Virus record (IMG/VR): IMGVR_UViG_3300031784_000013
Location: 1-64,000 of that record
Strand: one strand, 5' to 3'
Source: a virus
Length of the DNA: 64,000 nt
Position 1 is the first letter of the stretch. Each line of letters starts with the position of its first letter. A program made the translations under genes and the position numbers. A model generated the notes under the pieces. The model saw nothing but the letters and a program-made list of their open reading frames with translations. It was not told the DNA's origin and made no database searches. Positions 21,993-41,262 of this stretch are shown one piece after another.

Positions 21993-24697
21993 TAATTTAC
22001 TTGTCTATTGAAAATCAATTGAACATTTTGACTATTGAATCCTTGCGCACTTCGCTCAAGTGTTGGATCTGGTGAACCATTACTCAATGTGATATTAAAT
22101 GGTATATCTCTAACCCATTGTTGATCTACTAAATTACCACTATTTTTATCAATAAGGTAGAGTTTCATGAAAGATAAGTTTGGATTAGCTAAATCTCTTT
22201 CTAAATCTCCACGAAGTGCATACGTTGAACTTTGGAAGTTGGAGAAATCATTTGGTGAAAAATACGTGGTCATATAATCTCCAGAAGAATTCAAATTTGT
22301 TGTTCCCTTGTTCATTAATAATGATGGAGCACCTGTGAATGAAGAAGCTTTTGGAGGATCAGTTAAAGTTAAATATCTAAACTCTTGTTCATTTATTAGA
22401 ATAGGAGTTGGTGCTTGTCCAGACTCAGGAGTAATATTCAAGTAATATCTATCTGGTACACCACCGCTTCCTGGTAAAGCAATTGCATTCCCTGCAAATT
22501 TTCCAGAAAGTACTGCACTAGAAAGTGCTTCTACTTCATCTGGAGCAACTGATCTGTAGTTTTCTAAAACTTTAGAAAACTTAGCATTATATTCACCTTC
22601 TTTCAAGTCTCCTTGTGGTATATCAAATGAAGAAGGTTGTGCAACCATTCCATTTTCTTGCATCACTTCAGCTAATATTTCAGCGTAGTCTGCAACCTCT
22701 GAGTCTCTTATACCATCTGATATATTTGTTAGTATTGGTGAAGCAGTAGCAATTGGTAAATCAAAACTTCGAGCAGGATAAAGTAATTGTTCTATCTGAT
22801 TCATTTTCTCAGCACCATACTTGGCATTAAGCTTCATTCTTGCTTGACTACTAAGTTTTGATTGCTGTGTATCTACAGACATAGGCCCAAAGAAGTTAAA
22901 TCTTTCTGGACGAAGGTTCACAAGATCCAATTGATCTTCTGGTGATAAAGTGACTGACTCTCCTGTCATTAATTTTATAGAAACAGGCTTAACACCCTTC
23001 AAAGCTTTCTCATAAGCTTTGGTATCAATCCCTCTTGAAATTGCAATCTGATCTGCTTTATCTCTTGCAGACTTCATTTCTGATTGGAGAACACTCAATG
23101 TTTTAAGTGAATTACTTTGTCCTTCGATCAATAGTTTTGCAGTTGGAGGAACACTAGTTGGATCTGTTCTCCATTTTTCAAGTTGACCCACTGCAAGTTT
23201 TTCAACTGCCAAATTAACATTTCCAGAATTTGGATCTACAACTTTAGCAATCTCTTGAAGTTTAACAGCTATTCTTCTTTCGTACTCAGCAGGAGTTTCT
23301 GAAGCAGATTTAGGATTTGAAGCCTTCAGTGATTGAATAGCAATTTCTTTATTGAATGAATTATAGTTAGAAAGCGTTTGTTCATATTCTGAGTTTTTGC
23401 TTGCAACTATTTCAGCAGGAGTTGCCAACTCTGTAATACCTTGTGGTAGTCCAGGCGTACCAGATCCAAAACCACCAAGTAATTCTCTTCTCTTTTTTTC
23501 TATATCAAGTTTCTTCTCTTGTTCAAAAAGCTCAAACTCTTTTCCTTTATAGTAAGCATTGAGTTGCGCTGTTCTTTCATTTAGTAAATAGTTTTTCTTA
23601 TCCATTGCAACTTCGAACAATGGGTGCACAGAATATTTTGTAGAAGGCTCTTCACTTGACAAAACCCTAGACATTGATGATAAATAGTCATTTGTATAAA
23701 GCATTGCTTTTACAGATTCTGGGTTAGTTGCAAGTTTTTGAAGTCCACTTTTTTGAGACTCTTCTAATTTCTTATTCTCTGTTTGAAAATATTCAATTTG
23801 TTTACTTAAAGATTCAATAAGCTCTGGATTCTTTTTTGCTTTATTATTCTCGTCCGTCAATGCAATTTTCAACAACTCAACCTTACCATTATTAAATTCT
23901 ATTTTTTCAGTTAGTGGAGCTGTAATCTTTTCTTGAAGTTCTTCAGGTGTAGAGTTCAAATACTTATATCTACCTTCAATAGAAAGTTGTTCGTAATCTT
24001 CTGGAGTGAGTGCATTTTGAAAAGCAGTAAGAAGTTTTGCTGGATCTTTTCCCTTCAAAGTCCTCTGAACCAACACTTCATCAAAAAGAGGTTGTCCATT
24101 TTTGTCACGAAGTATCTCTCCTGTAGCAGCATCTTTTTGAAAGAAATTATCTATTTCTTTAGTATCGATACCAACTTCTTTTCCTATATCCTTAATCTTA
24201 TCCCACACATTATGGGGAGTTTTATAATAGCCAGTGTACTTAGCTCCAGCTTCAGGATTATTAAACCATTCCTGCTCTGATACATTGAACATTGTTGTGT
24301 TTGCAGGATTGTATTTTCCAGCTTCTGTATCTTTCTGAATCCTTTCTTGGAGAGCCTTTCTCTGTGCTGTTGATTGAACAGATGCAATAACGGTTGGATC
24401 TTTGGCAATACTACTTGCCATACCTGCTACGGAGTTTACCAACTGATAGTTAGAGAAGTCACCAGCAGCAACAGTTTTTAACTTTGTACCAAGTTCATTA
24501 AGCTTTGACTGTAGATACTCTCTATCTTGAGGTCTGGATATAGCCAATCCTGCAACTTGATCTATCTGTGACTGAATTTTTTGTATTCCCTGGTCGTAGC
24601 GTTGTTGCTTCTCCATACCAACTTGAACCATAGCATCAACAGGAAGCTGTTGGATATATGGGTTAAATTGTGGTATTGCATCTGTGAATGAAGCCAT
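21992..24697 (-). CDS. Virion cargo/ejection protein (901 aa)
   Basis: Long helical Cys-free ORF, translationally coupled (TAATG) to the vRNAP gene; syntenic with crAss-like cargo genes. Confidence 0.7.
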   Translation of the reverse strand: MASFTDAIPQFNPYIQQLPVDAMVQVGMEKQQRYDQGIQKIQSQIDQVAGLAISRPQDREYLQSKLNELGTKLKTVAAGDFSNYQLVNSVAGMASSIAKDPTVIASVQSTAQRKALQERIQKDTEAGKYNPANTTMFNVSEQEWFNNPEAGAKYTGYYKTPHNVWDKIKDIGKEVGIDTKEIDNFFQKDAATGEILRDKNGQPLFDEVLVQRTLKGKDPAKLLTAFQNALTPEDYEQLSIEGRYKYLNSTPEELQEKITAPLTEKIEFNNGKVELLKIALTDENNKAKKNPELIESLSKQIEYFQTENKKLEESQKSGLQKLATNPESVKAMLYTNDYLSSMSRVLSSEEPSTKYSVHPLFEVAMDKKNYLLNERTAQLNAYYKGKEFELFEQEKKLDIEKKRRELLGGFGSGTPGLPQGITELATPAEIVASKNSEYEQTLSNYNSFNKEIAIQSLKASNPKSASETPAEYERRIAVKLQEIAKVVDPNSGNVNLAVEKLAVGQLEKWRTDPTSVPPTAKLLIEGQSNSLKTLSVLQSEMKSARDKADQIAISRGIDTKAYEKALKGVKPVSIKLMTGESVTLSPEDQLDLVNLRPERFNFFGPMSVDTQQSKLSSQARMKLNAKYGAEKMNQIEQLLYPARSFDLPIATASPILTNISDGIRDSEVADYAEILAEVMQENGMVAQPSSFDIPQGDLKEGEYNAKFSKVLENYRSVAPDEVEALSSAVLSGKFAGNAIALPGSGGVPDRYYLNITPESGQAPTPILINEQEFRYLTLTDPPKASSFTGAPSLLMNKGTTNLNSSGDYMTTYFSPNDFSNFQSSTYALRGDLERDLANPNLSFMKLYLIDKNSGNLVDQQWVRDIPFNITLSNGSPDPTLERSAQGFNSQNVQLIFNRQVN

Positions 24698-24725: not shown

Positions 24726-27700
24726 TTACTTGGTTGCCCTTACAATGCCACCGTTTCTAATTGTGGTTGTATTGGTTGTTGTAGAACTAGCTCCTGTTGC
24801 TTTAGCAGATGCTAAAGCTAGTTTTTCAGATAGAGCTTTCTGTTCCGCAGGAGTTAGATCATTCATCATGGTATCAAACATTGCAAGAGTATTCATGTTG
24901 TTCGCTCTGAAACGCGGATCAAATCTATAGTTATAAAGATTCTCGTATGTCTGAAGAGTTCTATTCTCTAACTGATTCTGCATGTATTTAGAAGCAATAG
25001 AGCTAAGAGCAGCTTGTGATGTAGCCTTTGTATTAGAAAGAGCTTCTTGTTGTCTGCTGTATTGCTGATCAAAAGCCTGTAGATTGTTAAGGTTAGCCTG
25101 ATTTAGAAGATCTCTATTCTCAGCATACACTTTATCTTTCATAACTTGATTCAACTTGAATTGCTCACCAAGCACTTTTTGATTAGCTGCATACTTCTCA
25201 GCATTCAAAGCTGCTAGAGCAGCTGGATTGTAGCCCACCATTCTTTGAGTAGCTCTGTAATCAGCTTCATTCTCATTAATAATCTCTTGTAGAGAAATAT
25301 CAAAAGGAACGTTTAGTTGTGGTTGGATAGTCTGCACTTGTACAGGCTCAACTTGATTTGTTGCAAGAGCAAGCATTTCACCAGCCAATTGACGTGGGTC
25401 AAGAGGTTGTGCATTACTAGGTCTTAGATAAGGAATAATCTGATTAGCAAGTGTCATCCAGTCAATCTTACCTTCTTCACTTTCTGTCTGTTGATCAGCA
25501 CCAGGTCTATAGAAAGGACTGTAGAATGGTCTAATTTCTGGAAGCTTACCTAACGTTGGTTGCCAGCTAGACATCTGTGCCAATGTTTGACGAGGCTTTT
25601 TAATACCAGCATCTATAACGCTTTGAGGAACTTTAACTGGACCAAATGGATCTCTTTTAGGAACTATAGGTAATGCGTTAACAGTTACTTGTGGAAGATT
25701 TGTTGTACCAGTTTGAGCTTTTTCAATATCTACAAATCCTCCATTTTTTAATTCATTTGTACCTCGCATTTCAACAGATCTTTTTAAACCAAGACGGTCT
25801 GAAACTTTTGCATTCTTTAAATAATCGTCTATAAGTGCGCTATGCCCACCTTTCGAAACACCAAATGTTGGAAAGACCACTGGCTGATATTGGTTAGAAG
25901 ATTTTGAAGGATAGATTGGTTTAGGTAAAGATTTACCACTAACTTTTTCAAGATCTTTCAAATATCCAGCAAGCTCAGATTGTAATAACTGAGGATTATT
26001 CATCTGATCAGCAAATCCCATTTTATTAGAATTTTCGTAACCAAGAAATCTTAATTTTGAGTTAGGATCATTCTTCAATAGACTAGACATTGTTCTAAGT
26101 GACAGTGGATAACTATCACCAGATAAGCTACTTGCTGGATAAAATAGTCCAGTATTTTTTTGGTCAACATGTTGTAAAGCTTGTTTAAGCATACCTGAAA
26201 CATTATTTCTATCTGCAAATAAACTAGGTAGTAGCTCTGTAGAATACATACCTGGCTCATATTGTGCAAGAACTGGAGAATTACGAAGTCTTGCACCAGC
26301 GTACATGTCTACTATCTTATCACCAACATTTTTATAGAATGGATACGAGTAAAATTGATCTTCCATTTGACCTCTCATATCCTTATATATCATACCATCT
26401 TTTTGATAAAGTGTAGAGTAAGCATCAGGTTTTCTCGTTACACTACCGTCTACAGGATCTATTGCAATAACGTCTCTATCTATTGGTCTTTCATAAGGTG
26501 AGAAATAAGATGATTTACTTGGAGGATTATATATATCATCTCGAACTTGATTAAGTGTACGTTCACTATTAAGTTCATAATTCCATGATGTGTCATCAAA
26601 GCCAGCGGTTCTATTAGCATACTGAGCTGCTAAGTCTGGATTACCTTCTAATACTTTTACAGTTTGTGCATCAATTCCTACGTCTTTAAGTTTTTGTATA
26701 AACTCATCATGCTTATAGCCTGATAGATCAGTTAGTTTTCTACCTATATCATTTAGTGTAGTCATGTAACTTTGTGATACACCTGCTGATTGAATCTCTT
26801 TAGCCTTTGCAAGTAGTTTATTGTATTCATCAGAATATTTAGCAAGTTCAGCACTTGTAGCACCTCGTATGTTTGATTCTAAGTCCTTAACACTTCTACC
26901 AAAGTTTCTAACATCTGTAACTTTATCAACTCCTTGCATTACAGGTACATCTGCCATTGCAGCTTTTTCTAACTTCTTAACTTCGTTAACTATTCGCATA
27001 GCATCCTTAGTTTGATCAGCTATATTTGACAAGCTTATCATGTGAGGAGCAACAGCTTTCAAACCACCCATCACTGCTTGCTTACCTGGTTGTATAAGAG
27101 GTGCAGCCATCATAGAACCTATTCCAACTGCATCTAATGTGTTGAATGCCCCTTGTAAGTTTTGCTGATCAAATAATTGTTCCCCTGTTATAGGATTCAT
27201 TCCGCCAAGTGCTCCATACATAGCTGGTCCTGTAATTGGGGCAAGTGGATTTGCATAACCTGGTGCCATTAAACCAAGATCCAATAAAGTTTTTCCTGTA
27301 CCTGTTAAGTTTTGAAGAGGATCTTCTGCAAATCTAATAGTGCCTGGAACACCAGTTGCTTCATATCCAAACTTCTCAACATCTTTAACTAAACTAGATA
27401 TGTCTTTAGCAGTTTGTCCTCTCTTACCAGTGGTGGCAAGTGCTCTAGTGGCTCTTCCTATTGGACCTTTATCATTGATGTATTTTTTCTGTTCGTTAGA
27501 AAGAGATTGATAGAATGGGAATTGTTCATCGTAAGGAGTTACAGTGACTTCAGGAAGTAATGAACCTTCATACATCTTACCTTCTTCTGTAACACCTGTT
27601 TGAGCCTTCTTAATAGAAGCACCTTTCTTGGCTTGTTTAATCTTACCCTTTGCCAAAGCATCAGCCTCAAAACCATACTCTTCAGCTGTGTCATTAATAG

Positions 27701-29450
27701 CAGCCTGTAGAGAAGCAAGGTCTTGCTTCTTCTTAGCAATGTCTTTAAGCTTCATGTTAGCTCCAAGAATGTTGGCTTTGTATGATTCGAAAGAAAGAAG
27801 ATCTTGTGGCGTAATAACTTCTAAGTTATCAAGTTTCTCAGTGGACTTTTCTACAATCTTATTTTGCTTCTGCTCAGTTTTAGAAAGATCAGCAACGTAA
27901 TGTTTAAACTTCTTACCCTTTGCTTTATCATCACCCATTAGAGATGCACCAAAGCTTGGTATTTGTAGGTTGCCATATACAGTTAAACTGCTATCACCAT
28001 CTGTACCATTCTTAAGTTGTACAGCTGGTTCTCCTCTTTCCACTTCTACAGGACTGTCACCATAAGTGATGCCAATACCAGTGTTGCCTTGTCCATCAGA
28101 CTCATCGTGTGACTTTCCTCTGAACATAACAGTTTCTCCACCATCAGGTAGATATGGATTATAAGACATAGGTTCAGCATATCCACCCCAGTGGGTTTCA
28201 AGATCACCGCCCATAGCAAATTGTTCTCTTCCTGTGTACATTGCACGTTCACTAGGAGGGGTATAGTTTTTCAAATGTCCACCTGCACGTAATGTATCCA
28301 TAGTTGGATCAGGCTGCAACAATTGACTTAATTTATAATTACCAAACTGATTAATCATTTGTGGATTTATCATACCACCATCTCTCACATGAGAGTAGTT
28401 TTGTTGTTGCAATCCTTGGACACCCTGATTGAAAGCCATTGATGTAATGTTTCTATCAGTAACATCTCTTGCTTGTTGTGTCTTCTCAGCCTTTTTGTCA
28501 AGAAGATCACCAATTTTTTCACCAGCAAACTTTCCAACCATTCCTCCTAATGGACCAAAAAATACATTACCCACTGTACTCCCAACACCACCTCCAAGTT
28601 TACTAGCACCACTAGGACCATATCCTTTTGGATTTCCAATACCAACAGTTAATTTTGAAGCAGCATCAAATCCACCTTCATTTCCAAACTTAGTTAGGAA
28701 GTCTTTTCCAAACTGAGCTTGTTCTAAGTCTGTGTAAATAGTGTTAGGAGCAAACGTGTTTGCTATCTCTGTACCATTCTTTGCTAGAACAGTTCCTGTG
28801 CCATAGATTGGAAAGAACTCTGATCCAGTGTTTACATTATCTTCTGGACGAACATATCTTCTCTGAACTTGTTCTGGACGTGTCATAGAAGCTTGAAGAG
28901 CAACATCACTAACACCAGCCATTTGCTGAGCTTCCTTCATGATGTTTTTCTCATCCTTCATTTGCTGGATTCCTCCAACTATGTTTCCAACATTCTGAGC
29001 AAAGACAGCTGGTCCACCAGCTTTATCAATACCTTTGCTAATGCCACCAAGAATTGCACCCCCCGCAGCCTTCTTTAACTTCTTACCATTCTTAGCACCA
29101 GCTCCTTTGGAAGCACTACCTATTGCATTTCCAAGTTGGGTGAGAGCATCAGTGAATCCTGATTGTTTACCACCAGTCTTCTCTTCATAAGAAGCAAGAT
29201 CCATTGCTTGCTTATTACGCATATCTTGAGTTGATCCAGTGACAAACATATCATTCTGGTCATACAACTGCTGAAAGTTCATTGGTTGAGGGTTAAACTG
29301 AGGAGCTGTACTACCTTGAATCATAGCTCCCACTTGAGCTTTCTTCAAAGCTTTCCCATGAATCTTCATAAAAGATTCTTCTGTAGGAAACTTCTTGTAA
29401 AATTCCTTCTCAGACTTAACACCTGCTATCTTTAAAATTTGAGCCTTCAT
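24726..29450 (-). CDS. Virion cargo protein (1574 aa), crAss cargo-protein-1-like, modular
   Basis: GKSHDE...GIGI...PVEVERGE motif typical of crAss-like cargo proteins; Gly-rich hydrophobic helices; Gln/Asn-rich helical C-terminus; repeated xQxG/xxxGG motifs; no Cys. Confidence 0.7.
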   Translation of the reverse strand: MKAQILKIAGVKSEKEFYKKFPTEESFMKIHGKALKKAQVGAMIQGSTAPQFNPQPMNFQQLYDQNDMFVTGSTQDMRNKQAMDLASYEEKTGGKQSGFTDALTQLGNAIGSASKGAGAKNGKKLKKAAGGAILGGISKGIDKAGGPAVFAQNVGNIVGGIQQMKDEKNIMKEAQQMAGVSDVALQASMTRPEQVQRRYVRPEDNVNTGSEFFPIYGTGTVLAKNGTEIANTFAPNTIYTDLEQAQFGKDFLTKFGNEGGFDAASKLTVGIGNPKGYGPSGASKLGGGVGSTVGNVFFGPLGGMVGKFAGEKIGDLLDKKAEKTQQARDVTDRNITSMAFNQGVQGLQQQNYSHVRDGGMINPQMINQFGNYKLSQLLQPDPTMDTLRAGGHLKNYTPPSERAMYTGREQFAMGGDLETHWGGYAEPMSYNPYLPDGGETVMFRGKSHDESDGQGNTGIGITYGDSPVEVERGEPAVQLKNGTDGDSSLTVYGNLQIPSFGASLMGDDKAKGKKFKHYVADLSKTEQKQNKIVEKSTEKLDNLEVITPQDLLSFESYKANILGANMKLKDIAKKKQDLASLQAAINDTAEEYGFEADALAKGKIKQAKKGASIKKAQTGVTEEGKMYEGSLLPEVTVTPYDEQFPFYQSLSNEQKKYINDKGPIGRATRALATTGKRGQTAKDISSLVKDVEKFGYEATGVPGTIRFAEDPLQNLTGTGKTLLDLGLMAPGYANPLAPITGPAMYGALGGMNPITGEQLFDQQNLQGAFNTLDAVGIGSMMAAPLIQPGKQAVMGGLKAVAPHMISLSNIADQTKDAMRIVNEVKKLEKAAMADVPVMQGVDKVTDVRNFGRSVKDLESNIRGATSAELAKYSDEYNKLLAKAKEIQSAGVSQSYMTTLNDIGRKLTDLSGYKHDEFIQKLKDVGIDAQTVKVLEGNPDLAAQYANRTAGFDDTSWNYELNSERTLNQVRDDIYNPPSKSSYFSPYERPIDRDVIAIDPVDGSVTRKPDAYSTLYQKDGMIYKDMRGQMEDQFYSYPFYKNVGDKIVDMYAGARLRNSPVLAQYEPGMYSTELLPSLFADRNNVSGMLKQALQHVDQKNTGLFYPASSLSGDSYPLSLRTMSSLLKNDPNSKLRFLGYENSNKMGFADQMNNPQLLQSELAGYLKDLEKVSGKSLPKPIYPSKSSNQYQPVVFPTFGVSKGGHSALIDDYLKNAKVSDRLGLKRSVEMRGTNELKNGGFVDIEKAQTGTTNLPQVTVNALPIVPKRDPFGPVKVPQSVIDAGIKKPRQTLAQMSSWQPTLGKLPEIRPFYSPFYRPGADQQTESEEGKIDWMTLANQIIPYLRPSNAQPLDPRQLAGEMLALATNQVEPVQVQTIQPQLNVPFDISLQEIINENEADYRATQRMVGYNPAALAALNAEKYAANQKVLGEQFKLNQVMKDKVYAENRDLLNQANLNNLQAFDQQYSRQQEALSNTKATSQAALSSIASKYMQNQLENRTLQTYENLYNYRFDPRFRANNMNTLAMFDTMMNDLTPAEQKALSEKLALASAKATGASSTTTNTTTIRNGGIVRATK

Positions 29451-29451
29451 A

Positions 29452-32400
29452 TCAGTTGTATTTATCCAGCCAGTTATCCTTGTCTGGGTTATTTGTAAAG
29501 TTAAGTAATTGATTTAGTTTTTTCATAGGTTGGGCATCTAATTGATTGATTCCCACGTCACCACCATTTCGTTTGGTCTTAGGTAAAGATCTAACATAGT
29601 CAGCTATTGACTTAGCCTCTTCTGGAGATATCTTCTCTGTTTTCCATTCAATCTTTTCATTTTTAGATTGATCTTTTCCAAATGATTTTGGTGCAAAGCC
29701 TTTCACTTTATCAATGTAATCAACATCATTTCTTTTCAAGTAGTAATTTACAAATCTTGGCTCAAGTGCTTTCCCTGGTGCATTGTGCATCAAAGTTGTC
29801 AAATCAATAATCTGGTCTTCAGAAAGATCTGGATACTTAGCCTTCAATTTATGATAGTTATCAACAGCTAATGCTAATGAAGATTTAACCTGACCTTCAA
29901 AAGAGTCTAAGTCGTATTTGTAGAAATTACCTCTTTCAGATAAATCTTTTTGTTGAAATTCACCAACGCTTCTAGGTGTTCTGTACGGACTATAATCAGA
30001 ATCTTCAGAGTCAAGGCTTTTTACAAAGTCTTGATATGAGCTAAATTCTTTTTGAACATTATGAGCGTTCTTATTCCAATAGTCCTTTTTCCAATTATCT
30101 TCTTCACCAAAATTGTAATCATAGATTTCTCTAGCTCTTCTTGCATAGGGTAGAAGACTGTCTGGAACAATATCTTTTGGATTAGATGCAAATTCACCAA
30201 ACTTAGTTTCTTGCCCAGCAATTCCTATTTGATTCATTATCAATTTATTGAACGAATCAATTGGCATGTTAGAACCTTTACCAAGATCACTGTAGACAGT
30301 CTTATAGACATCTGCATATCTTTGTAAATTTTTGTCTGGAGCCAATTCATTTTTAACATTCAATCCATCTACTTTATTATTAAAGAAAGTTAAGTTTGAG
30401 GTATCAAATTTTGAATATTGACCAGAGTAAGGATTTTTACCTTTTAATACATTGATCTTGTCTTGGTTCTCCTTTTTTATAGATGTTACTTTATCTGGAT
30501 CATATCGATATGTAATTCCTCCATCAAAAGTTTTATAACCCTTTTTATATCTGTTCATCAATTCAGATTCAGATACATCTTCAATTTCAACTTTGTCTCC
30601 TCCTGCGTTGTTTGCAACCTTAAAATACTTTTTCCCATCCTTCACAAATTCATTAACAATCAAAACTGCATGATTTGGATAGAGATCATTTTCATTTCTA
30701 AAATCAACTTCTCCAGGAAAGCGTGAAAATGTATTACCTTTCTTTCTAGCATATTGGAATATATCACCTACACCAAATCCTTCCTTCTCAGGATTAGATC
30801 TGTAATATCCTTCGTCCATTGCATTGTCTGCAAATGTTGCATTTCCAGTGTATGTATCTTTAGTCTGACCTTTGTCAAATTTCACACCTGCAATATTTGA
30901 AACCATATAACAAACTCCATTTATACAATTCATATCTCCCTCAGAGGTGTCGATATTATTGTCTTTGTAATATGGAGTGGTGTAGTTTTTTGATTTCAAA
31001 ACATCATCATACATATTGAACTTGGACAAGTAATCTTGTCTTGAAACTTCTTGTTGAGCAGGAGTATCTTTACCTGTTTGTGCAACAGGAAACTCTGTAA
31101 CCTTCTTACCATTGAACTTGTAATTCTTTCCTGGTTGCATAAGCTTTGTGTCACCAGTATCAGAAATACCAAGAAGTGGTTCGTACACTCCTTCCATTGT
31201 AATGTTGTTACTACCTATCTCAACAGGCTTTCCCCAGTTATCTGGATTCCAATAACCTAGATTATCTTTAGTTATACCACCATTCTTTTGCTTCTGTACT
31301 GGTTGTTGATTTTGCAATGCAGATATTGTAGCAGCTGCACCACCAGCAATTGGTAATGTTGCAGAAGGAAGATTATTTAAAGTTTCACTCAAGATTTTGA
31401 AATTCTTAGGAGTTTTCTCCATAATCTCATACAATCTCAAGATGCTTTTATTACCTCCTGTTTTATTATAAAGATCATAATGATCCTCTATCATTTGAGG
31501 AGTTATTTCATCATAGTAATCTTTTATTTTTCCTCTTCGTAATAAACTTTGTCTAACCTCAGCAGCAAAAGGTAGTTTCTCCATTCCTCCACTACCTGTT
31601 AGGAAATAATCAAGAGCTGGATAAAAACCATATCCCCACTGTTGATTTGATTTTGAAAAATCAACATCCTCTAACTGTCCTTCTGAGAGAGATGAGTCAG
31701 GAACTGAGCTTGGTTGTTTTTTTAATTCTAGCTCAGAAAGTTTATCATCAAGGTTTGTTCGCCTTCGATTTCTTTGAAAAATGTGGCCCATTTCATGATC
31801 AAATATACGTCTTATGTCTCCTGGAATTAGATTCTCACCCATGTACATTGCAGCAACTGAACCAGGACCATATCCTCCATCTCCACCTCTACGACCTGCA
31901 AATGCATTATCTGCATCGATGAAAGGATCATTATTTTTGATAAACTTTAAGTTTCTAATTTCCTCGATTATATCATCAGGTTTTAGTTTTTTGAAACCAC
32001 TAAGCTCACCTGATTTAAGACCATGCAAGAAAAACTCACCCCATGATTCTACAGGTTTTCCCCAAGATTTATGATCTCTCCCAAAATTTTTATTTATCAT
32101 GTATTGGAGTCTTCTTCTACCTTCTGGAGTATCAATTCTATCAATAGTTTTTTGCTTTAATTCTTGAAGCAAATCCATGTGAGGATGATCCAATTCTGTA
32201 TATGGAAGTTGTGGTTGATTAGGAACAGTTGATGCGTTAGGAGTGGAAGAGGCTAATACATTATCTGCCATCATTTGAGGAGATGGTGCTTGTGAAATAG
32301 CTATATTGTCAATGCCTTTAACAAGGTTTTGACCAATACCTTTTAAACTTAGTCTGCCAATATCATCAATCATACCTACACCAGGTATAGCATTGACTGG

Positions 32401-34269
32401 GTCTCCAAGAGCATCCAATCCAAAATTAAAAGCATTCTTTCCAAATGATGAATAGCTATCTAGCCAACCACCAGGTTTTTGAAATCCCCATGCTTGAGAA
32501 GGTGTTTGTTCTTTTCCTGTAATCAACTGCATCATCTCCTTTTGTGGAGCACCCATCAGCTCACCAACATGTCCATAGAGATTTGCCATTCCCTGAGACA
32601 TTGCATTTTTTATACGTTCATCCTTACCCTCTACAACAATCTCAGGAAGTTCCATACCTTCATAAATCTTCCCACCTTCTTGCATACTCTTTGGTTTCCA
32701 ATCAAGGCCATTCTGATAGAATCTCATTTCTTGACCATTCTGTGCAGAAGCCATTGTCTTCTTTGCATATTTACCTTTGCTAGGAGCAGCACCAGCTACA
32801 CGTGCGTATGTGAATCCTACAGAGCCAGGCATAGAAGCACCATTCATTGCAATAGGCGCAACTTCTTCATTACCTTTGGCAATAACATTCATCAACTTAA
32901 TTAAACCGCTTTCGCCAGCCGCTTGAATAGTTCTATCGAGTGATTGATTACCTTTTAGTTTTTCCTTGGCTCTTTCTAAATCTTCTTTTGTAAACTCTTT
33001 CCCTTTTCTAATATCATAAACCCCTTTATCAAACATTAGATATCGAAGAGCATTCAAGTCACTTTTGAATTCTTGAGGATCATTTCTTATATGTAAGGCT
33101 TGAGATCTTCTTATATCATCTTTTTGATTAATAGGTTGATAATTTCCTGTAACGGGATCTATAGTATAAAATGATTTATTAAACTCTGAAAACGGCAACA
33201 TTGTAGACGTTATTAACGAATCTTCAAAAGCAGTAGTATTATCTATTGCATGTCCAATTTCATGAGCTAGAACAGTTTCAAACATTTCAGGAGTCTTAGT
33301 ATGATCTGGATGTATTTCAATACCAAGTCCTGTATAGCGAGAAGCAGGTCGTCCTTTATAATAAGATGGTTCAATTTGAATAAATCCAGGCTCTTGAACT
33401 GATTCTAATGCACCCATTCTTGATTCTCTAGCACTAGATAGCCATTCTCCCATTTGAGGACGTATAGTTGATCCTTCTTTACGATAGATAGCGTTCCCTG
33501 GCACGTCTTCATAGTATCCAGTGTTCTTCATACGTCTTTCGTACTCTGGACTAGAAACCCACGACTTGTAGAATTCAGCCATGTCCCATCCTGGAATATC
33601 TGTATTATCTCCTGACTTTGGTATATACTGGGGATAACCAGTTAATTTATCAGGATCATTATACTTAGTCATTATTGGAGCTGATACAACAACTTCAGGA
33701 AGGTCATACTCCTTCGCAATGGTTGCATCCTTTTTTTCCTGAATCTTTTTATTCATGTATTCAGAAACACCATTCTGAGCAATTGGAATAATTCCACCTT
33801 GCTGGAAGTCTAATACACCTGTTCCTCGTTTGTAATTTTTTGCAAACTTTTTAGCTTTTCTATCTGTAGGAAATTCAATGTAGCTGTTTGTGCTATCAGC
33901 ATAATTGTAAGCATCATCTCCTAAGTACTTTAACTCTCCATCAATATTTCTAATAGTAGGATAAACCCTTCTATCAGCAGATTCCATAAAATGAGTGCTT
34001 CTTCCTTCTTGACCTGGGATTTGAATAGATCCGTAATTGGCATCATACAATCCCTTCACCCAATCAAGATTCTTATTTGCGTTTAGTATTTGATCAATCT
34101 TCTTACCACGCTGGGCAATTTCTCCTCCATACTCAAATTGTCCTCCCCACGCAGGGGAATAGTTTCTTCCTTCTGTATTATATCCTACACCAACAAATCC
34201 TTCAGGAAGGCTAACGTTTGATTCGTTAGCGTTGTCTGCTTTACCAAAGTTGTCTAACCATCCTTTCAT
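29452..34269 (-). CDS. Polyvalent virion cargo protein (1605 aa): two HExxH metallopeptidase domains, CHAP/NlpC-P60-like amidase and lysozyme-like domain
   Basis: VLAHEIGHAID (~33250-33264) and IFDHEMGHIFQ (~31783-31797), each with a downstream Glu. NCINGVC (~30910-30927) plus NHAVLIV (~30670) gives a Cys/His pair. GIAGQETKFG...SVGEFQQ...LMHNAPG (~30200-29770) is transglycosylase-like. Confidence 0.7.
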   Translation of the reverse strand: MKGWLDNFGKADNANESNVSLPEGFVGVGYNTEGRNYSPAWGGQFEYGGEIAQRGKKIDQILNANKNLDWVKGLYDANYGSIQIPGQEGRSTHFMESADRRVYPTIRNIDGELKYLGDDAYNYADSTNSYIEFPTDRKAKKFAKNYKRGTGVLDFQQGGIIPIAQNGVSEYMNKKIQEKKDATIAKEYDLPEVVVSAPIMTKYNDPDKLTGYPQYIPKSGDNTDIPGWDMAEFYKSWVSSPEYERRMKNTGYYEDVPGNAIYRKEGSTIRPQMGEWLSSARESRMGALESVQEPGFIQIEPSYYKGRPASRYTGLGIEIHPDHTKTPEMFETVLAHEIGHAIDNTTAFEDSLITSTMLPFSEFNKSFYTIDPVTGNYQPINQKDDIRRSQALHIRNDPQEFKSDLNALRYLMFDKGVYDIRKGKEFTKEDLERAKEKLKGNQSLDRTIQAAGESGLIKLMNVIAKGNEEVAPIAMNGASMPGSVGFTYARVAGAAPSKGKYAKKTMASAQNGQEMRFYQNGLDWKPKSMQEGGKIYEGMELPEIVVEGKDERIKNAMSQGMANLYGHVGELMGAPQKEMMQLITGKEQTPSQAWGFQKPGGWLDSYSSFGKNAFNFGLDALGDPVNAIPGVGMIDDIGRLSLKGIGQNLVKGIDNIAISQAPSPQMMADNVLASSTPNASTVPNQPQLPYTELDHPHMDLLQELKQKTIDRIDTPEGRRRLQYMINKNFGRDHKSWGKPVESWGEFFLHGLKSGELSGFKKLKPDDIIEEIRNLKFIKNNDPFIDADNAFAGRRGGDGGYGPGSVAAMYMGENLIPGDIRRIFDHEMGHIFQRNRRRTNLDDKLSELELKKQPSSVPDSSLSEGQLEDVDFSKSNQQWGYGFYPALDYFLTGSGGMEKLPFAAEVRQSLLRRGKIKDYYDEITPQMIEDHYDLYNKTGGNKSILRLYEIMEKTPKNFKILSETLNNLPSATLPIAGGAAATISALQNQQPVQKQKNGGITKDNLGYWNPDNWGKPVEIGSNNITMEGVYEPLLGISDTGDTKLMQPGKNYKFNGKKVTEFPVAQTGKDTPAQQEVSRQDYLSKFNMYDDVLKSKNYTTPYYKDNNIDTSEGDMNCINGVCYMVSNIAGVKFDKGQTKDTYTGNATFADNAMDEGYYRSNPEKEGFGVGDIFQYARKKGNTFSRFPGEVDFRNENDLYPNHAVLIVNEFVKDGKKYFKVANNAGGDKVEIEDVSESELMNRYKKGYKTFDGGITYRYDPDKVTSIKKENQDKINVLKGKNPYSGQYSKFDTSNLTFFNNKVDGLNVKNELAPDKNLQRYADVYKTVYSDLGKGSNMPIDSFNKLIMNQIGIAGQETKFGEFASNPKDIVPDSLLPYARRAREIYDYNFGEEDNWKKDYWNKNAHNVQKEFSSYQDFVKSLDSEDSDYSPYRTPRSVGEFQQKDLSERGNFYKYDLDSFEGQVKSSLALAVDNYHKLKAKYPDLSEDQIIDLTTLMHNAPGKALEPRFVNYYLKRNDVDYIDKVKGFAPKSFGKDQSKNEKIEWKTEKISPEEAKSIADYVRSLPKTKRNGGDVGINQLDAQPMKKLNQLLNFTNNPDKDNWLDKYN

Positions 34270-34270
34270 A

Positions 34271-35137
34271 TTACTTGTAAGAGATTTGTGCTGGTGCTAT
34301 AATGAATTGGCTTACTAAATGTGCATCTGATCGATTGTCAAGAATATGTCTTATTTTCAATTCTTTTGCTCTCAGAGGTTCTTTCTTAAATGATCTTGGT
34401 CCGTAGTCCATATTAATTTGATTCACTTCTTTATCAAGAGAAAGTGATTCGCATGTTCTTACAAACAGTGGTATGGATTTATCTTTTACTACAGACCAGA
34501 ATGTATTATACTGATAGAAGTTGTCACTCTTTGTGAAAGTGATTGTCTTACTATTAGTATTCAATATAGGATATTGTAGATAAGAATTCAAATTGTTGAT
34601 TGGTTTTGGAACAAGCTCAAGCACACCTGTTGATTGTTGTCCGTTGTATAAGACAGCTTTGTTAAACCAAACATTGTCAAGTTCTATTCTTGATACATCA
34701 TTACTTATACCATAAGGATCATTGAAATACTTATACACCTTAGTGTAGTCTTTTACATTCTGGAGAATCTCATCTTGATACTGATATGCAAAAGGATATT
34801 CAATGATGTAGGGTTCTATATGCCCATAGAAGATGTTGTAGATGGCATGATCGTTTATGTGTCTCCACATACATGCTGTTTCAATAGTTTCTACAGTAGT
34901 GTTTTGATATTGATCCTGTGTAATTGTTGTAACAGCAAATGATTTTTCATAAGCACATTTACCTTCAGAGGTGATAGTAACTAAGTTAACACTATTGTCT
35001 ACAATATAACTCACACCAATAGACACCTCCTCAAGTGTTACACCTGAGTCAATAACATTTCCATACTCATCTGTGATGGTGAAAGGCCCTGAGTTAGGGC
35101 CTGTCTTGGTTAGCTTTATTGTAATAGTCTTTGACAT
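34271..35137 (-). CDS. Tail protein: N-terminal docking module A plus probable C-terminal part of the muzzle/tail stabilization protein
   Basis: Likely start MSKTITIKL at 35137, immediately after the upstream stop. The C-terminal WRH..YNIFYG.IEPYIIEYP..FNKAVLYNGQQSTG..LRAKELKIRH resembles the end of crAss-like tail stabilization proteins. Confidence 0.65.
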   Translation of the reverse strand: MSKTITIKLTKTGPNSGPFTITDEYGNVIDSGVTLEEVSIGVSYIVDNSVNLVTITSEGKCAYEKSFAVTTITQDQYQNTTVETIETACMWRHINDHAIYNIFYGHIEPYIIEYPFAYQYQDEILQNVKDYTKVYKYFNDPYGISNDVSRIELDNVWFNKAVLYNGQQSTGVLELVPKPINNLNSYLQYPILNTNSKTITFTKSDNFYQYNTFWSVVKDKSIPLFVRTCESLSLDKEVNQINMDYGPRSFKKEPLRAKELKIRHILDNRSDAHLVSQFIIAPAQISYK

Positions 35138-35138
35138 G

Positions 35139-35631: not shown

Positions 35632-38600
35632 TTAAGATGGCCCCACACAACATTCACTAATACTTCCTGTCACAGGTACTACATCAGCGTAGTCAAATGT
35701 TGGACTTGCAACTTCACCACAAGAAGGTAGCGGTGCACATTGTATATCACTTGAAGCAATCAATATACTACCAGTAGTTCCTGAAGTTATAAATGTAGTT
35801 TGTGTTGAAGCATCGCTATAATGTGCGGTTACATTTATATCAAATGGAGCTGGTATTTCATTTCCACCACAACTATCAAAGAAGATTATTATTGTATCAG
35901 TTGTACTTGCAAAAAAGCCAGGACAATCAAAACATTCACCAGGAGTAGTTTGGATACTTACTATCTCATAACAATATGGACTAGCTGTTGTAGTGGTAGT
36001 GGTAGTGGTAGGTGTTGCAGTTGTAGTTGTTGTGGTGGTAGTAGTAGGTTCTAAAGTAGTAGTTGTTGTTGTAGTTGGCTCTAATGTAGTAGTTGTAGTT
36101 GTGGTGGTTGAAGTTGTAGTTGGAGGTGGGCTGCAATCACACTGTGGATCAAGACAGCCAATACCTTGTGCAAGAAATCCACAATCATCGCTTATCACTT
36201 CAGTAACACATGCTGTAAAGCATAGCCCCTCATCTTGTGATGGGATGTTAAGAGTGATTGTTACACCATTCTCATCTTTATACACAAACGTACATCCACC
36301 AAACGGAGCAGAATCTAACTTATAACACTCATCTGTAAGAGGTGCAGGTGTAGTGGTAGTAGTTGTTGTTGGAGACGGTGTTGTAGTTGTGGTCGTTGTA
36401 GAACTTGTACTAGTGGTAGTAGTAGTTGGTTCTGCTGTCGTTGTTGTTGTAGTTGTAGAACTTGTTGTACTAGTAGTTGTACTTGTTGTACTAGTGGTAG
36501 TTGAAGTTGTACTAGTAGTGGTTGATGTAGAAGTGGAAGTTGTTGTAGATGTTGTAGATGTTGTAAAAGGTCCTACATAACCATCTCCTGCCAAATCACA
36601 ATCTAAAGATACAATTTGTCCAATTCCTGCCAAAGAACAATCTATTTCCTGAACTGTAGCTGTAAAGTTACATTGTAAAGGAGCAACTGTTGTTGTAGTG
36701 GTTGATGTAGAAGACGTTGATGTAGATGTTGTAGTGGTAGTTGGTGGATTTGGAACCAATACACCCACTAGAAAATCAAAGTCTTCACAGCAATTGTTTT
36801 GTCCTGAATAGAAGAAGTTGTTCTCAGCAACATACCAGTTTGGAATGTAACTGTGGAAACTTATCCAACTCTTTGTATTCATGTTGAAAGATAACGTCCA
36901 TGATACGTTACAGAAATAACGTTCATCACTTACACTAACGTTTTGTCTAATAGTTAGACCATTAACAACATTGTTAATGTAGAACTCTTGCTCCACTGGA
37001 TCATATAAAATGTTTTTTGACTTTGGTGCATAGTCCAACTTAGTAATAATCACTCTGTCATATACAGCATCATACACGCCATGAAGTCCTATTCCTTTGA
37101 AATGGTTATCAATATTCACTTCTGGGAAGTTATTATTAATCATGAATGGTAAATGCTCAACAAAGAACCTGTTCATTCCTGATCCAAATGCAGATAAGTC
37201 AACTGCTTCTGTTCCCTGGATCAAGAACACTTGTCCCCGTTTAGCATCAACAGTAACTTGACCTTGAGGAATTTTTAACAACATCTTGTGCTGACTTCCC
37301 ACATATCCAAGATCAGTTTCTGCAAAGTCAATAGGAGGTGCTCCTCTAAACAATAATGGATTACCTACATAAGCAGCTTGAGGGTTACTTGTGTCAATAG
37401 TCAAGAGATTATTGTACATCAATGTCTTATTCTCAAATCTTGCAAGAATAGCTCTGTTCTGAATACCATCAAGAGCCACTAGATTTCCATAGTTCTGTGG
37501 GAAATCAAAATAAGAAATAGCTCTGTAGATAAGCCAGTTGTTCACTCTGTTGTCAGCATCGATGTTTTGAGCATCAGAATAGATAGCTCTGAACGGATAG
37601 TTTGTAAAGCACAATCTACTTTCCCAATCAACAGGTAAGTGAGTAAATGTATTCTCTCTGTTTTGCTTTGAGAATGTTGTATTGTAGTAGTAGGTGTTGT
37701 CTTGTGCAATAGGTACAAAGCTCTGCTGCAACCAGTCATCTGGAATGTCTGTACTAACATGTGGCCAGAAGTCTCCCTCTCTATTGTTAAATGCTTGTCT
37801 TAAATCAGTATTGTAAGAACTTTCGCAATAGAAGTTTGGAATACCATAGGCAAACAAGTAAAAGTAACCATCATAGTATGTAATGGTTGAACTTGGTGTC
37901 ACTTCACCAGAACCACCTGGAGGGAATGTTGTACTAGTAGTAGTGGTGGTTGATGTAGATACAATCACATCTGTTCCCACTTCATTAGGACAATCAAAAT
38001 TATGTGCCTTGTAAGAAATGATGTTTGCCATCACTCCTTGTCCAGGAATGCTGTAGTTCTCGAGAATAGATCTCGCAGAGTGCCAATATCTAGGATAGGC
38101 AACGTTACCTATTTCATCATAGAAGATGTCACTATCATCAGGAGCATTCACTCTATTGTCAATAAAGAATGGAAGCTTGGTCTTGAATGCGAATCTGCTA
38201 ATGAATGTATCACCACCAAACACCGTGGTGGATGGATTAGGTGAGTTAATTATGTATTGATAACCTGTATCAATTGTTTCGTATGAATAGATTTGACCCC
38301 ACTGATTAACAACTGAGTTCTTCAGTGATGCATAATATGAAACAACCTGTATAGGCTCTTCTTTAGCTGGTGTTGAACAGTTTCCTATTTCTGAAATAGT
38401 GAATCTTGATCTATCCGTAACAATACTTGTAATTCCAGAAAGCATGTTAGGACTCTTATCAGGATAAGGAAGAGCTGTAGTGTCTATGTTTGTTTTCATA
38501 AACACAGAGCTTTCTCTGTTCCAGTTGTTGATAGGAAGATCATCTCCTACAGCCTGAACGCCAGGAATCAAATACCTAGCTATGTCAAGCTCTCTTTGCT

Positions 38601-41262
38601 TGATTCCTTGATTGTCAGGAACACCTACACCATAGTTGTAATCAGCAATAGAGTTGAATGAGTATGCATAGTTTCTTCTGGTAATACCATTAATGTAAAT
38701 AGTCAAATAAGACTGATACGCAGTGAACATAGCTGTTGCACTAAATGGTGTAGTAATACCACCAAGTCTTGCAGAACTATCAAGAGCAGCCTTCTGAGCA
38801 GCCTCAGAGAGCAACTTATATTTAGCATTGTCTGCCACCTGAACAAAGTGAGCTTTACCAGTACCAAACATTACACTTTCAAGCTTGAGAATGTCTGCTA
38901 AGAATGGTTGACCAAACGATGTCTCTGGAGAGTTGAAGATTTGTCTGTATCTATTCTCGTCAGTGAAGCCATCTAGTAGCGTTGTGCCACCACAATCTAC
39001 ATCAGATCTCACTTGTCTAATTCTTCTTATTTGAGCATCTGCACAACTCGCTGTACATATAACAGCTGTATCAGCAACAACCTCAACAGTATCTTCTGTA
39101 TCACCAACACTCAATGTTGTTGGTCCTAAGAATCTATCATCATAAGATGCTGTAAACGTTGCTCCTGCTGGAGAATCAAGTGTGTAAACATCATAGTTAG
39201 CATATCCCACTTCTCCTCCGCCAATAATAATTGTTGGTCTACCAACAGCACAAATCACATCTTCTTGTATAGAAGTGTAATCCTTGTAGACAATTTTGTT
39301 GTTCTCGCAAGAATAATACTGCACTCGAGCTAATGGATTACCAGTAATTGGATCTGTACCAAGGCTAGTGATGTAAACATCAAATGGTTCACACTCGCTC
39401 TGGTAAGCATTGTTTGTTGTTGTAAGGAATGGATCTTCGTTGAGATCGTTATATGGATAGTTAGGAAAATAGAATGATTGTTCTTCTCTTGTGTACTCAC
39501 CAACGTTTCTAAGTATTCCCTTAGCTACAATAGACTTATTAACACTTCTATCACCACGCACAATCTTAAATCCTACAACGTCAGATTTCTGATCATCTGT
39601 AAGATTTGATACTTGTATGAGATTTAAGATTTGAGAAGGATCAATCTTTACACCAATAGGAAAAACAGCATCGTTCCCCATCACCATCGCTTGTGGTGCA
39701 GAAAAGACTTTACTCTCGTATATTGGAGAGATGTTTACATCTGGGAACTTGTGATGTCTGATTTTTTGTCCTGCAAGATTTCCCCACACGTCTGTGTTGC
39801 ATGGATATTCTTCAACAGATTCCCAATAGGCAAATTCGCCAAATTGATATGGTCCTTTATAAGCATCATTTGTTGAATATTCTGGAGAGAATCCTGTGAT
39901 AGTAGCTGTGTTATAAATCTTCCAATACGGTGAATCATGTGTGATTGGGTCAGGGTTACCTATAAAGTCTGGATCTGTATCAGGAATTCTTGGAAGCAAT
40001 TGTTCATATCCTGTAATTGCTTTTCCTGGAATATGGAATCCATCTGTTTGTTTTCCGTTCTTCAATAGAAAAACAATCTCAAAAGCATACACTTCATCAC
40101 GAAGATATCCTCTAAGATTCGTTGCGTTTATTTCGTCTGCATAGTTCTCTGTTGCAGGAATTCTCCAAGATTCCCATAGCAACGTAATCTGGTTAGCAAC
40201 TTGTTGATAGTTGATTCTATCAATAGATGTCAACTGATCCCATACAAGAACATCCTGTACAGCAGTTAAGTCTTGAGCAATTTCATAGAATGGAAACTTC
40301 TCAAATATGTCCTGTATTACAAGATTGATTGTTGACTGCCCTGTGTAGGTGATTTGTATATTACCATTGTCAATGAAATATGTACCAACAAGATCAACAG
40401 ATGTTACACCGTTGATAGTTTTGATTACAGCAAGGTTAAAATACTCAAACTGTCCAGATACATCAAGGTTGTCAACATTGACAACAATTGATTTTCCTAC
40501 AGGATAATTGAAGTTGGGTGTTGTGATAAACTCATCAGCAATAGGTGTAGGATTAGTAACTGAGTAGTAGGAAGTAAATGGATTACCAGCTGGATCAGAA
40601 TACTGAATAGCAAACTGATATGTACCTGCAATAAGATTACCTCCACTGATAACATCAATGATTGTTAGTTCAGGAATGTTAAAATTGGGCTGTAGCTTGA
40701 GTTGATTACAATCAAGATCATCTGTATAGATAGGGCTACAAAGAGCACTACCAGATCTAAGGATCTTAGGAATGTCATCAATGTCTAGATATCTTCTAGG
40801 ATTATAGCCATCTGTCCAATAAATCTCTGTATTACAATTGGTAATTCTGTGGACAACTTTGTGAATAGGGTAATCAGTATTAAAGTTTAGGCAAGGAGCA
40901 TTGACAAGAACACGATACTCGCAATCATTATTGTCCATATACCCTATCTGACTGTCTCCTGTAGATGGATTAGTAATGAAGAATATATGTTTGTTTTTCT
41001 CTACAATAAAGTGTTCCCCTATAAGCACAAAACCTTCAGGGAAACGAATACATAATTCGTTACCAGGTTCGTTCTGATAGTTTACAGAATTTGAATCAAA
41101 GTTTTCAACAGCAGCGTTAAGAGCATAAGTTAGTCTACCTTTCTGAACTTGATTTAGAGATTGATCTAAATTCAGTCCCGTAGTGGCATTATTATACTCC
41201 TGTTTAACATTACCTTGATCACCATTGATGATCTGTTTTATTTTGTCTAACTCGTCTGCCAT
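35632..41262 (-). CDS. Tail stabilization / muzzle protein (P22 gp10-like, 1876 aa) with Cys-rich insertion and mucin-like Thr/Cys-rich C-terminal extension
   Basis: GLNLD..YALNA..NEPGN N-terminus, GYLRDEVYAFEIVF, IRHHKFPD, FGGDTFISRFAFK and WISFHSYIP motifs; syntenic after the IHF and ring genes. Confidence 0.85.
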   Translation of the reverse strand: MADELDKIKQIINGDQGNVKQEYNNATTGLNLDQSLNQVQKGRLTYALNAAVENFDSNSVNYQNEPGNELCIRFPEGFVLIGEHFIVEKNKHIFFITNPSTGDSQIGYMDNNDCEYRVLVNAPCLNFNTDYPIHKVVHRITNCNTEIYWTDGYNPRRYLDIDDIPKILRSGSALCSPIYTDDLDCNQLKLQPNFNIPELTIIDVISGGNLIAGTYQFAIQYSDPAGNPFTSYYSVTNPTPIADEFITTPNFNYPVGKSIVVNVDNLDVSGQFEYFNLAVIKTINGVTSVDLVGTYFIDNGNIQITYTGQSTINLVIQDIFEKFPFYEIAQDLTAVQDVLVWDQLTSIDRINYQQVANQITLLWESWRIPATENYADEINATNLRGYLRDEVYAFEIVFLLKNGKQTDGFHIPGKAITGYEQLLPRIPDTDPDFIGNPDPITHDSPYWKIYNTATITGFSPEYSTNDAYKGPYQFGEFAYWESVEEYPCNTDVWGNLAGQKIRHHKFPDVNISPIYESKVFSAPQAMVMGNDAVFPIGVKIDPSQILNLIQVSNLTDDQKSDVVGFKIVRGDRSVNKSIVAKGILRNVGEYTREEQSFYFPNYPYNDLNEDPFLTTTNNAYQSECEPFDVYITSLGTDPITGNPLARVQYYSCENNKIVYKDYTSIQEDVICAVGRPTIIIGGGEVGYANYDVYTLDSPAGATFTASYDDRFLGPTTLSVGDTEDTVEVVADTAVICTASCADAQIRRIRQVRSDVDCGGTTLLDGFTDENRYRQIFNSPETSFGQPFLADILKLESVMFGTGKAHFVQVADNAKYKLLSEAAQKAALDSSARLGGITTPFSATAMFTAYQSYLTIYINGITRRNYAYSFNSIADYNYGVGVPDNQGIKQRELDIARYLIPGVQAVGDDLPINNWNRESSVFMKTNIDTTALPYPDKSPNMLSGITSIVTDRSRFTISEIGNCSTPAKEEPIQVVSYYASLKNSVVNQWGQIYSYETIDTGYQYIINSPNPSTTVFGGDTFISRFAFKTKLPFFIDNRVNAPDDSDIFYDEIGNVAYPRYWHSARSILENYSIPGQGVMANIISYKAHNFDCPNEVGTDVIVSTSTTTTTSTTFPPGGSGEVTPSSTITYYDGYFYLFAYGIPNFYCESSYNTDLRQAFNNREGDFWPHVSTDIPDDWLQQSFVPIAQDNTYYYNTTFSKQNRENTFTHLPVDWESRLCFTNYPFRAIYSDAQNIDADNRVNNWLIYRAISYFDFPQNYGNLVALDGIQNRAILARFENKTLMYNNLLTIDTSNPQAAYVGNPLLFRGAPPIDFAETDLGYVGSQHKMLLKIPQGQVTVDAKRGQVFLIQGTEAVDLSAFGSGMNRFFVEHLPFMINNNFPEVNIDNHFKGIGLHGVYDAVYDRVIITKLDYAPKSKNILYDPVEQEFYINNVVNGLTIRQNVSVSDERYFCNVSWTLSFNMNTKSWISFHSYIPNWYVAENNFFYSGQNNCCEDFDFLVGVLVPNPPTTTTTSTSTSSTSTTTTTVAPLQCNFTATVQEIDCSLAGIGQIVSLDCDLAGDGYVGPFTTSTTSTTTSTSTSTTTSTTSTTTSTTSTTTSTTSSTTTTTTTAEPTTTTTSTSSTTTTTTTPSPTTTTTTTPAPLTDECYKLDSAPFGGCTFVYKDENGVTITLNIPSQDEGLCFTACVTEVISDDCGFLAQGIGCLDPQCDCSPPPTTTSTTTTTTTTLEPTTTTTTTLEPTTTTTTTTTATPTTTTTTTTASPYCYEIVSIQTTPGECFDCPGFFASTTDTIIIFFDSCGGNEIPAPFDINVTAHYSDASTQTTFITSGTTGSILIASSDIQCAPLPSCGEVASPTFDYADVVPVTGSISECCVGPS

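Follow-up and report, generated by a model that had tools for sequence, protein, structure and literature searches.

TonB-box-like peptides open exchangeable modules of two probable cargo proteins in an uncultured crAss-like phage

An unsolved question in podophages is how so much internal protein is moved through the tail and past the envelope. In crassviruses, the cargo has been proposed to leave the virion partly unfolded; capsid pressure is the sole driver proposed, and the driving force for protein ejection has been left open (PMC10172136). The locus described here raises this question in a concrete form. It lies within a 64,000-nucleotide stretch (positions 1 to 64,000, hereafter the window) of the IMG/VR record IMGVR_UViG_3300031784_000013, a 111-kb genome from an uncultured virus with an estimated completeness of 96%. 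Two adjacent open reading frames (ORFs) of the minus strand, P0001 (29452..34269, 1605 aa) and P0002 (24726..29450, 1574 aa), occupy the cargo slot of this genome, and each of them contains two copies of a short peptide that resembles the TonB box of Bacteroidota transporters. What are these peptides, and why do they stand where they do? The best single reading, which we hold tentatively, is that they are TonB-box mimics used in cargo ejection, with docking to TonB predicted from sequence.

A six-frame translation of the window contains exactly four minus-strand matches to LP[EQ][VI].V (33685-33702, 32632-32649, 27540-27557 and 25680-25697); each cargo ORF holds two of them, and there are none elsewhere. 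The positions given in the initial annotation of this DNA are thus borne out. Moreover, a looser pattern of eight residues, L.[EQD][VI].V.[AGP], finds the same four sites alone when every ORF of 100 codons or more in the 111-kb genome is scanned. From the amino-acid composition of P0001 and P0002, 0.006 matches are expected (Poisson P ~6e-11), a value computed for a pattern that was defined post hoc, after sighting, so that conservation in homologues is the stronger argument. Chance occurrence was ruled out by the composition expectation, the genome-wide scan, the conservation in homologues and a family-wide shuffle test.

Copy 1, LPEVVVSA (33679..33702; P0001 residues 190-197), lies 23 residues past an AQNG sequence. 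Copy 2, LPEIVVEG (32626..32649; P0001 residues 541-548), follows MQEGG by 7 residues and opens the EGKDERIK module. In P0002, copy 3, LPEVTVTP (27534..27557; residues 632-639), stands 12 residues past AQTG and opens the TPYDEQFPFYQSLS module, and copy 4, LPQVTVNA (25674..25697; residues 1252-1259), stands 3 residues past AQTG and precedes the conserved C-terminal part (..PFGP..). The AQxG or MQEGG sequence previously noted upstream is therefore present before all four copies, but the spacings of 3, 7, 12 and 23 residues run slightly beyond the 3-22 that had been claimed. The motif follows only four of the roughly 15 AQxG-type linker sites, and none of those in the C-terminal modules of P0001. 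A context shared across the two genes, also part of that description, was recovered as K[IM]YEG, in KIYEGME-LPEIVV and KMYEGSL-LPEVTV. The "Gly-rich hydrophobic helices" said to follow copies 2 and 3 stood up only in part: these segments are mildly Gly/Ala-rich (Gly 12% vs 9%), but transmembrane helices were ruled out there, the maximum Kyte-Doolittle value in 19-residue windows being 1.27.

The host side of the comparison was built from TonB-dependent transporters (TBDTs). For 70 TBDTs from the genomes of five Bacteroidota (Maribacter, Arenibacter, Pedobacter, Bacteroides and Emticicia), an unseeded expectation-maximisation search was run on the 45 residues that precede the Plug domain (PF07715). 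The motif found blind in this way is L-[DEGSN]-E-V-[VI]-[VI]-[VT]-[GA], placed mostly 12-17 residues before Plug. In a scan of the phage ORFs with the resulting matrix (38,803 positions), LPEVVVSA ranked first, with 14.0 bits, and LPEIVVEG fifth, with 7.3 bits. Leave-one-out scores of the TBDTs have a median of 21.5 bits and a 5th percentile of 8.4; copy 1 falls roughly in the lower quarter of the transporter range and copy 2 below its 5th percentile. The giant ORFs downstream, in the RNA-polymerase slot of crAss001, hold none of the 15 top-scoring positions of the genome. At homologous places, relatives carry LPEVVVTP, LDEVTVTA (15.5 bits) and LPEVVVTG (18.4 bits). Family-wide, 50 sites reach at least 14 bits vs 0.5 in shuffles, a count made over homologues that are not independent of each other.

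The transporter peptide is itself specific. A DNA pattern for [L/F]xEVVVx[GA] gave 54 matches in two Bacteroidota genomes (8.7 Mb). Judged by these matches, LxEVVVx[GA] is in Bacteroidota a dedicated TonB-docking transporter tag and not a generic strand, because 47 of the 54 lie immediately upstream of Plug on the same strand and the remaining seven are within the 12 given by a reversed-pattern control.

We then consider the structural setting of the peptides. A sequence search of the PDB with motif peptides of 27-30 residues returned nothing at E up to 10, these queries being too short. AlphaFold2, run with homologue alignments on P0001 residues 140-560 and P0002 residues 590-1300, assigns all four copies a predicted local distance difference test (pLDDT) score below 50, in linkers that adjoin confident domains. 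Copy 1 is immediately N-terminal to such a domain, and the values for copies 3 and 4 are ~28-30 and ~28-32, respectively. The domain after copy 1 is a predicted HExxH zincin-like module (32878..33672, minus strand; P0001 residues ~200-464; pLDDT 76-95 over segment residues 61-325), in which H197, E198 and H201 of the modelled segment are invariant among aligned homologues; Foldseek returned weak metallopeptidase matches alone (E >0.2), and Pfam M48 stayed below its cut-off. Between copies 3 and 4, a helical and alpha/beta module is predicted (25809..26996, minus strand; P0002 residues ~819-1214; pLDDT mostly 75-94 over segment residues ~230-625). Burial of the motif in a folded domain, which the initial annotation had named as a reason to abandon the TonB idea, was examined. 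The prediction places every copy in an accessible, disordered linker N-terminal to a module, which is the setting expected of a TonB box.

Conservation of the peptides is strong while the proteins around them are not constant. For P0001 there are 192 homologues, and for the C-terminal part of P0002 there are 537; all are metagenomic, with strongly shuffled module content. The motif in its broadened form, L-[PD]-E-[VFI]-[VT]-[VI], is nearly invariant (more than 200 homologues) and occurs in up to three copies per protein; the sequence that it opens always belongs to one of eight or more downstream families unrelated to each other. All 35 aligned homologues, some of them only about 50% identical, keep L-P-E-V-V-V at copy 1; the copy 3 site reads LPEVVVTP or LPEIVVTP in relatives, and copy 4 varies as LPQVNVNA or LQP[VI][DN][VI]TA. 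When upstream contexts are tabulated against downstream ones, the joins are combinatorial. The linker ...YYDGAFTLPD is found before both EGKDERIK and TAPRSYTMDSL modules, the linker ...MQEGGKIYEGME before both EGKDERIK and TPYDEQFPFYQSLS modules, and the EGKDERIK module is preceded by three different linkers among homologues. Likewise, the TPYDEQFPFYQSLS module sits in a P0001-type gene in other genomes. Because a given linker can lead into different modules and a given module can come after different linkers, the hexapeptide is, on this pattern of contexts, a unit in its own right, positioned exactly at module junctions. This agrees with the initial view that the motifs start cargo modules, since the copies sit at linker/module borders in the homologue contexts.

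Modules also differ between relatives in other ways. In a relative of 87% identity (L001:8001-11534), the entire first P0001 module is missing, including motif copy 1 and the first zincin; the deletion spans from ...AWGGQF to PGSVGFTYAR.... Therefore, modules are also gained or lost at GG-type linkers, and not solely at the LPEVVV junction. In the homologues P0012 (residues 374-487), P0017 and P0023, an extra SLT lytic transglycosylase module (PF01464, E ~1e-12) is placed between the zincin module and the AQNGQEMRFYQNG linker; P0001 of the window has no Pfam-detectable SLT. Enzymes of this type act in the periplasm. The disordered P0001 linker that runs from the first zincin to copy 2 contains SMPGSVGFTYARVAG (32794-32829, residues ~481-492), and the N-terminus of the major capsid protein (MCP; 53054-53092) begins MAIQTIPGLTGFTYARVAS. 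The element common to both, PG..GFTYARVA, is kept in the homologues P0012 and P0123 and could act as a signal for docking or packaging inside the capsid, or else as a processing site that both proteins share.

Four considerations lead us to favour TonB mimicry. The motif almost exactly matches a peptide reserved for TonB docking in the host phylum; the copies are predicted to be disordered and precede domains; their carriers are probably envelope-acting, given the cargo slot and the SLT modules of homologues; and the giant ORFs downstream hold no top-scoring site. Periplasmic ejection, TonB binding and the use of force are what we infer. In the mechanism that we propose, the cargo chains would exit the tail partly unfolded and reach the periplasm ahead of the phage DNA. 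The C-terminal domain of the host TonB would then capture each exposed box through beta-strand augmentation, and TonB-ExbBD would pull or hold the module that follows, either through the proton-motive force or as a plain ratchet or tether. Such a pull might help to extract or orient envelope-acting cargo, much as TonB boxes of their own serve group B colicins and pyocins. The 18 bp that encode the motif double as a junction for module exchange between genes and genomes, a second property that is compatible with TonB mimicry.

Several results weigh against this interpretation. The likeness to the TonB box, as initially proposed for all four peptides, is quantitative for the P0001 copies but is not supported for those of P0002, with LPEVTVTP at 1.2 bits and LPQVTVNA at 0.1 bits; these scores are low because none of the 70 boxes contains Pro2, Thr5 or Pro8. 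Altogether, not one of 190 transporter boxes (the 70 unbiased ones plus 120 of SusC type) has Pro2. In addition, the commonest variants of the phage family, LPEFVV and L[DP]EVT[VI], carry Phe4 or Thr5, which are likewise absent from the 70 TBDT boxes; LPEFVV is found in 37 of 61 copies before EGKDERIK. The motif is also absent from the scanned regions of crAss001, Fpv3, Cellulophaga phage phi14:2 and Lbo-JY46, which include the cargo genes gp45 and gp46 of crAss001 and gp30 and gp31 of Fpv3 and, for Lbo-JY46, a 40-kb stretch around its sole P0001 match. This absence excludes a motif general to Crassvirales; across the regions scanned, the motif is a trait of one environmental clade and not a general crassvirus mechanism. 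No phage-encoded TonB-like partner was found (PF03544, no match at E up to 1). By portal and MCP, the isolate nearest to this phage is recorded on a cyanobacterium. Finally, the codons of the motif are more uniform than the peptide needs, which recombination would yield whatever the peptide does.

This last point leads to the alternative that survives best, which we nevertheless regard as unlikely: that the 18-bp sequence and its linkers are only a short-homology cassette boundary, and the peptide a harmless linker that binds nothing in particular. Conserved boxes in the tail-fibre genes of T-even phages are comparable cassette boundaries. Homology does break off right at the motif on either side (U0xD0/D1, U1xD0/D3 and U0/U1/U7xD0 in the table of upstream and downstream contexts), and the TPYDEQ module, carried by the P0002 gene here, is found in a P0001-type gene elsewhere. 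Over 16 motif copies from nine loci, for which alignment-based contig scans gave four viral and three metagenome loci, codon use at positions 1, 2, 5 and 6 is far more uniform than background: CTT in 13/16, CCT in 12/13, GTT in 10/10 (Val5) and GTA in 12/16 (Val6), vs 33-47%. Breakpoints together with DNA more conserved than the peptide needs are what a recombination junction should leave, and they are indicative only, as the copies are not independent. Recombination seems to have spread or homogenised the junction DNA, and part of the apparent conservation may be shared descent of the junction. On the other hand, the codons of positions 3 and 4 vary synonymously (GAA/GAG; GTT/GTA/GTC/GTG) with the residue class kept, and the peptide remains invariant across homologues of only ~50% identity. 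A neutral boundary, moreover, has no cause to match a transporter TonB box at five or six positions, and modules come and go elsewhere too, as in the GGQF.../...PGSVGFTYAR deletion described above.

Less probable again is that the motif is a processing site, cut after Glu (as in the T4-type L-x-E) or, by one of the HExxH zincins of the cargo itself, ahead of the hydrophobic residue, so that modules are freed from a polyprotein. The build of the proteins is polyprotein-like, with folded modules joined by linkers predicted to be disordered, and P0001 has two intact HExxH modules, one of them directly after copy 1. The S1' pocket of zincins prefers hydrophobic residues, and the variable position 4 is always hydrophobic (V/I/F), as such a pocket would favour. 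Against cleavage stand the copies LPQVTV and LQPVNV, which are without the Glu, and the absence of a prohead protease by Pfam or PHROGs among 20 structural ORFs. Furthermore, the motif is missing from the MCP and every other virion protein, unlike a prohead site of the T4 type.

We would give a similarly small chance to a docking strand within the virion, which would pack or order the cargo by pairing with the portal, a ring of the tail barrel, the muzzle or the capsid interior. In crAss001, parts of gp45 bind the portal and the tail barrel (PMC10172136), and the copy of the MCP N-terminal peptide in the P0001 linker suggests that linkers carry assembly-related signals. However, in crAss001, Fpv3 and phi14:2, whose portal, ring and muzzle proteins are homologous, the cargo lacks the motif, and docking inside the virion would leave the match to the host transporter tag unexplained. 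Chance and explanations not listed here are, taken together, quite improbable.

Two known systems that use TonB invite comparison with the peptides. The first is the Bacteroidota TonB box of SusC/RagA-type and generic TBDTs. The phage motif has the same core, L-x-E-V-V-V-x-[G/A], and in phage and transporters alike it occupies an unstructured segment ahead of a folded domain, which in transporters is the stretch between the N-terminal region and Plug. Like the SusC-type box, it is internal to the chain and not at the N-terminus. Unlike transporters, the phage carriers are cargo proteins without Plug or barrel, and the phage version has Pro2, common Phe4/Thr5 variants and a free position 7.

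The second system comprises group B colicins, pesticin and pyocins (for instance colicin B and pyocin S2), in which a TonB-box-like peptide likewise stands in a disordered region, ahead of functional domains, in a foreign protein that crosses the envelope. Colicin B exemplifies TonB-dependent import of an unfolded protein and can carry attached single-stranded DNA through FepA (PMC8546555). In the phage, however, there are two boxes per chain and all are internal (residues 190 and 541; 632 and 1252), whereas colicins have one near the N-terminus; only a cut at the upstream xQxG sites would bring the phage boxes close to an N-terminus. Delivery is through the tail and not from solution, and the payloads are structural or enzymatic modules in place of a single toxin domain. 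No transporter-binding domain was identified in P0001 or P0002 by Pfam or PHROG, nor by Foldseek on the first module. With internal boxes, no receptor-binding domain identified and no transmembrane-grade segment, the "colicin-like architecture" of the initial annotation reduces to a loose analogy.

The identity of the carriers as cargo comes from their genomic neighbourhood. On the minus strand, a crass-type structural module comprises a large terminase (57097-59121), a portal (54503-57097) and the MCP (51557-53110), all recognised by PHROG, followed by ring protein 1 (41269-42243; Pfam PF24228) and a muzzle protein of 1876 aa (35632..41262; PF25731 crAss_MUZ, 110 bits against a cut-off of 27; PHROG 37948, E = 1e-114). 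The region 3' of the muzzle gene holds two small ORFs and then five large ones: P0001, P0002 and, again on the minus strand, ORFs of 901 aa (21992-24697), 4248 aa (9246-21992) and 1636 aa (4336-9246). The first two of these last three have no Pfam or PHROG match; the third has no Pfam match and a weak exonuclease PHROG match (E = 8e-5). Gene order is that of crAss001, with the muzzle gp44, the cargo gp45 and gp46, and then the polymerase-associated giants; P0001 holds the position of gp45. Synteny is closer still with Flavobacterium phage Fpv3, in which a muzzle-sized gp29 is followed by gp30, gp31 and gp32; the latter, of 4287 aa, is the counterpart of the 4248-aa giant ORF.

Judged from this position directly 3' of the muzzle gene, P0001 and P0002 are probably ejected cargo proteins. 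No Pfam or PHROG family exceeded threshold for either of them; P0001 is modular, with its two zincin-like modules and copies 1 and 2, and P0002, which carries copies 3 and 4, has a Gly-rich N-terminal part and a weak DUF456 match at residues 273-329. With crAss001 gp45 (C1) and gp46 (C2) they share the slot between the muzzle gene and the giant polymerase-associated genes and, presumably, the condition of being ejected first, partly unfolded and acting on the envelope. They differ in having no detectable sequence similarity to them, in being modular and about twice as long, and in the motif itself, which the cargo proteins of crAss001, Fpv3 and phi14:2 do not carry. By synteny with the RNA-polymerase-associated genes of crAss001, we infer that the giant ORFs may represent a virion RNA polymerase.

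Relatives of the portal are found in phages of Bacteroides, Flavobacterium, Cellulophaga and Azobacteroides, at ~25% identity. The closest isolate is Leptolyngbya phage Lbo-JY46 (PP438436.1; portal 29.6%, MCP 25.9%), recorded on a cyanobacterium; all other portal relatives infect Bacteroidota, and the cyanobacterial host assignment of this deep crass-like branch is worth scrutiny. A search of 185,579 species genomes with P0001 found no relative, hence no host or prophage clue, and a search of viral contigs with P0002 gave no match. Among the tail genes, at 43611-45788, 35139-35594 and 34271-35152, lie Thr-tract-linked small modules and a leucine-rich-repeat-like protein of 725 aa (PHROG 22899/17273). 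Thr tracts in relatives give rise to antisense poly-Val ORFs, whose high scores in the matrix scan are spurious.

Bacteriocins are well known as TonB-box parasites, but a full-text literature search returned no report of phage ejection proteins that carry such boxes. If TonB does bind the motif, cargo ejection would gain both a source of energy and a means of setting its direction; infection in Bacteroidota would then be expected to depend on TonB, and a new route to phage resistance would be expected as well. The fullest version of this idea, that an environmental crAss-like clade powers protein ejection by host TonB-ExbBD, with a predicted internal box at the leading edge of each envelope-acting cargo module and the unfolded chain pulled module by module, seems to us somewhat unlikely as it stands. 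Were it true, a bacteriocin-style import would be built into the virion, and this would answer what drives very large cargo, with thousands of residues per chain, through a narrow tail. Should the motif be merely a junction or a processing site, the finding still sets the grammar of a large and highly modular cargo family, namely disordered linkers bearing conserved short motifs between exchangeable modules.

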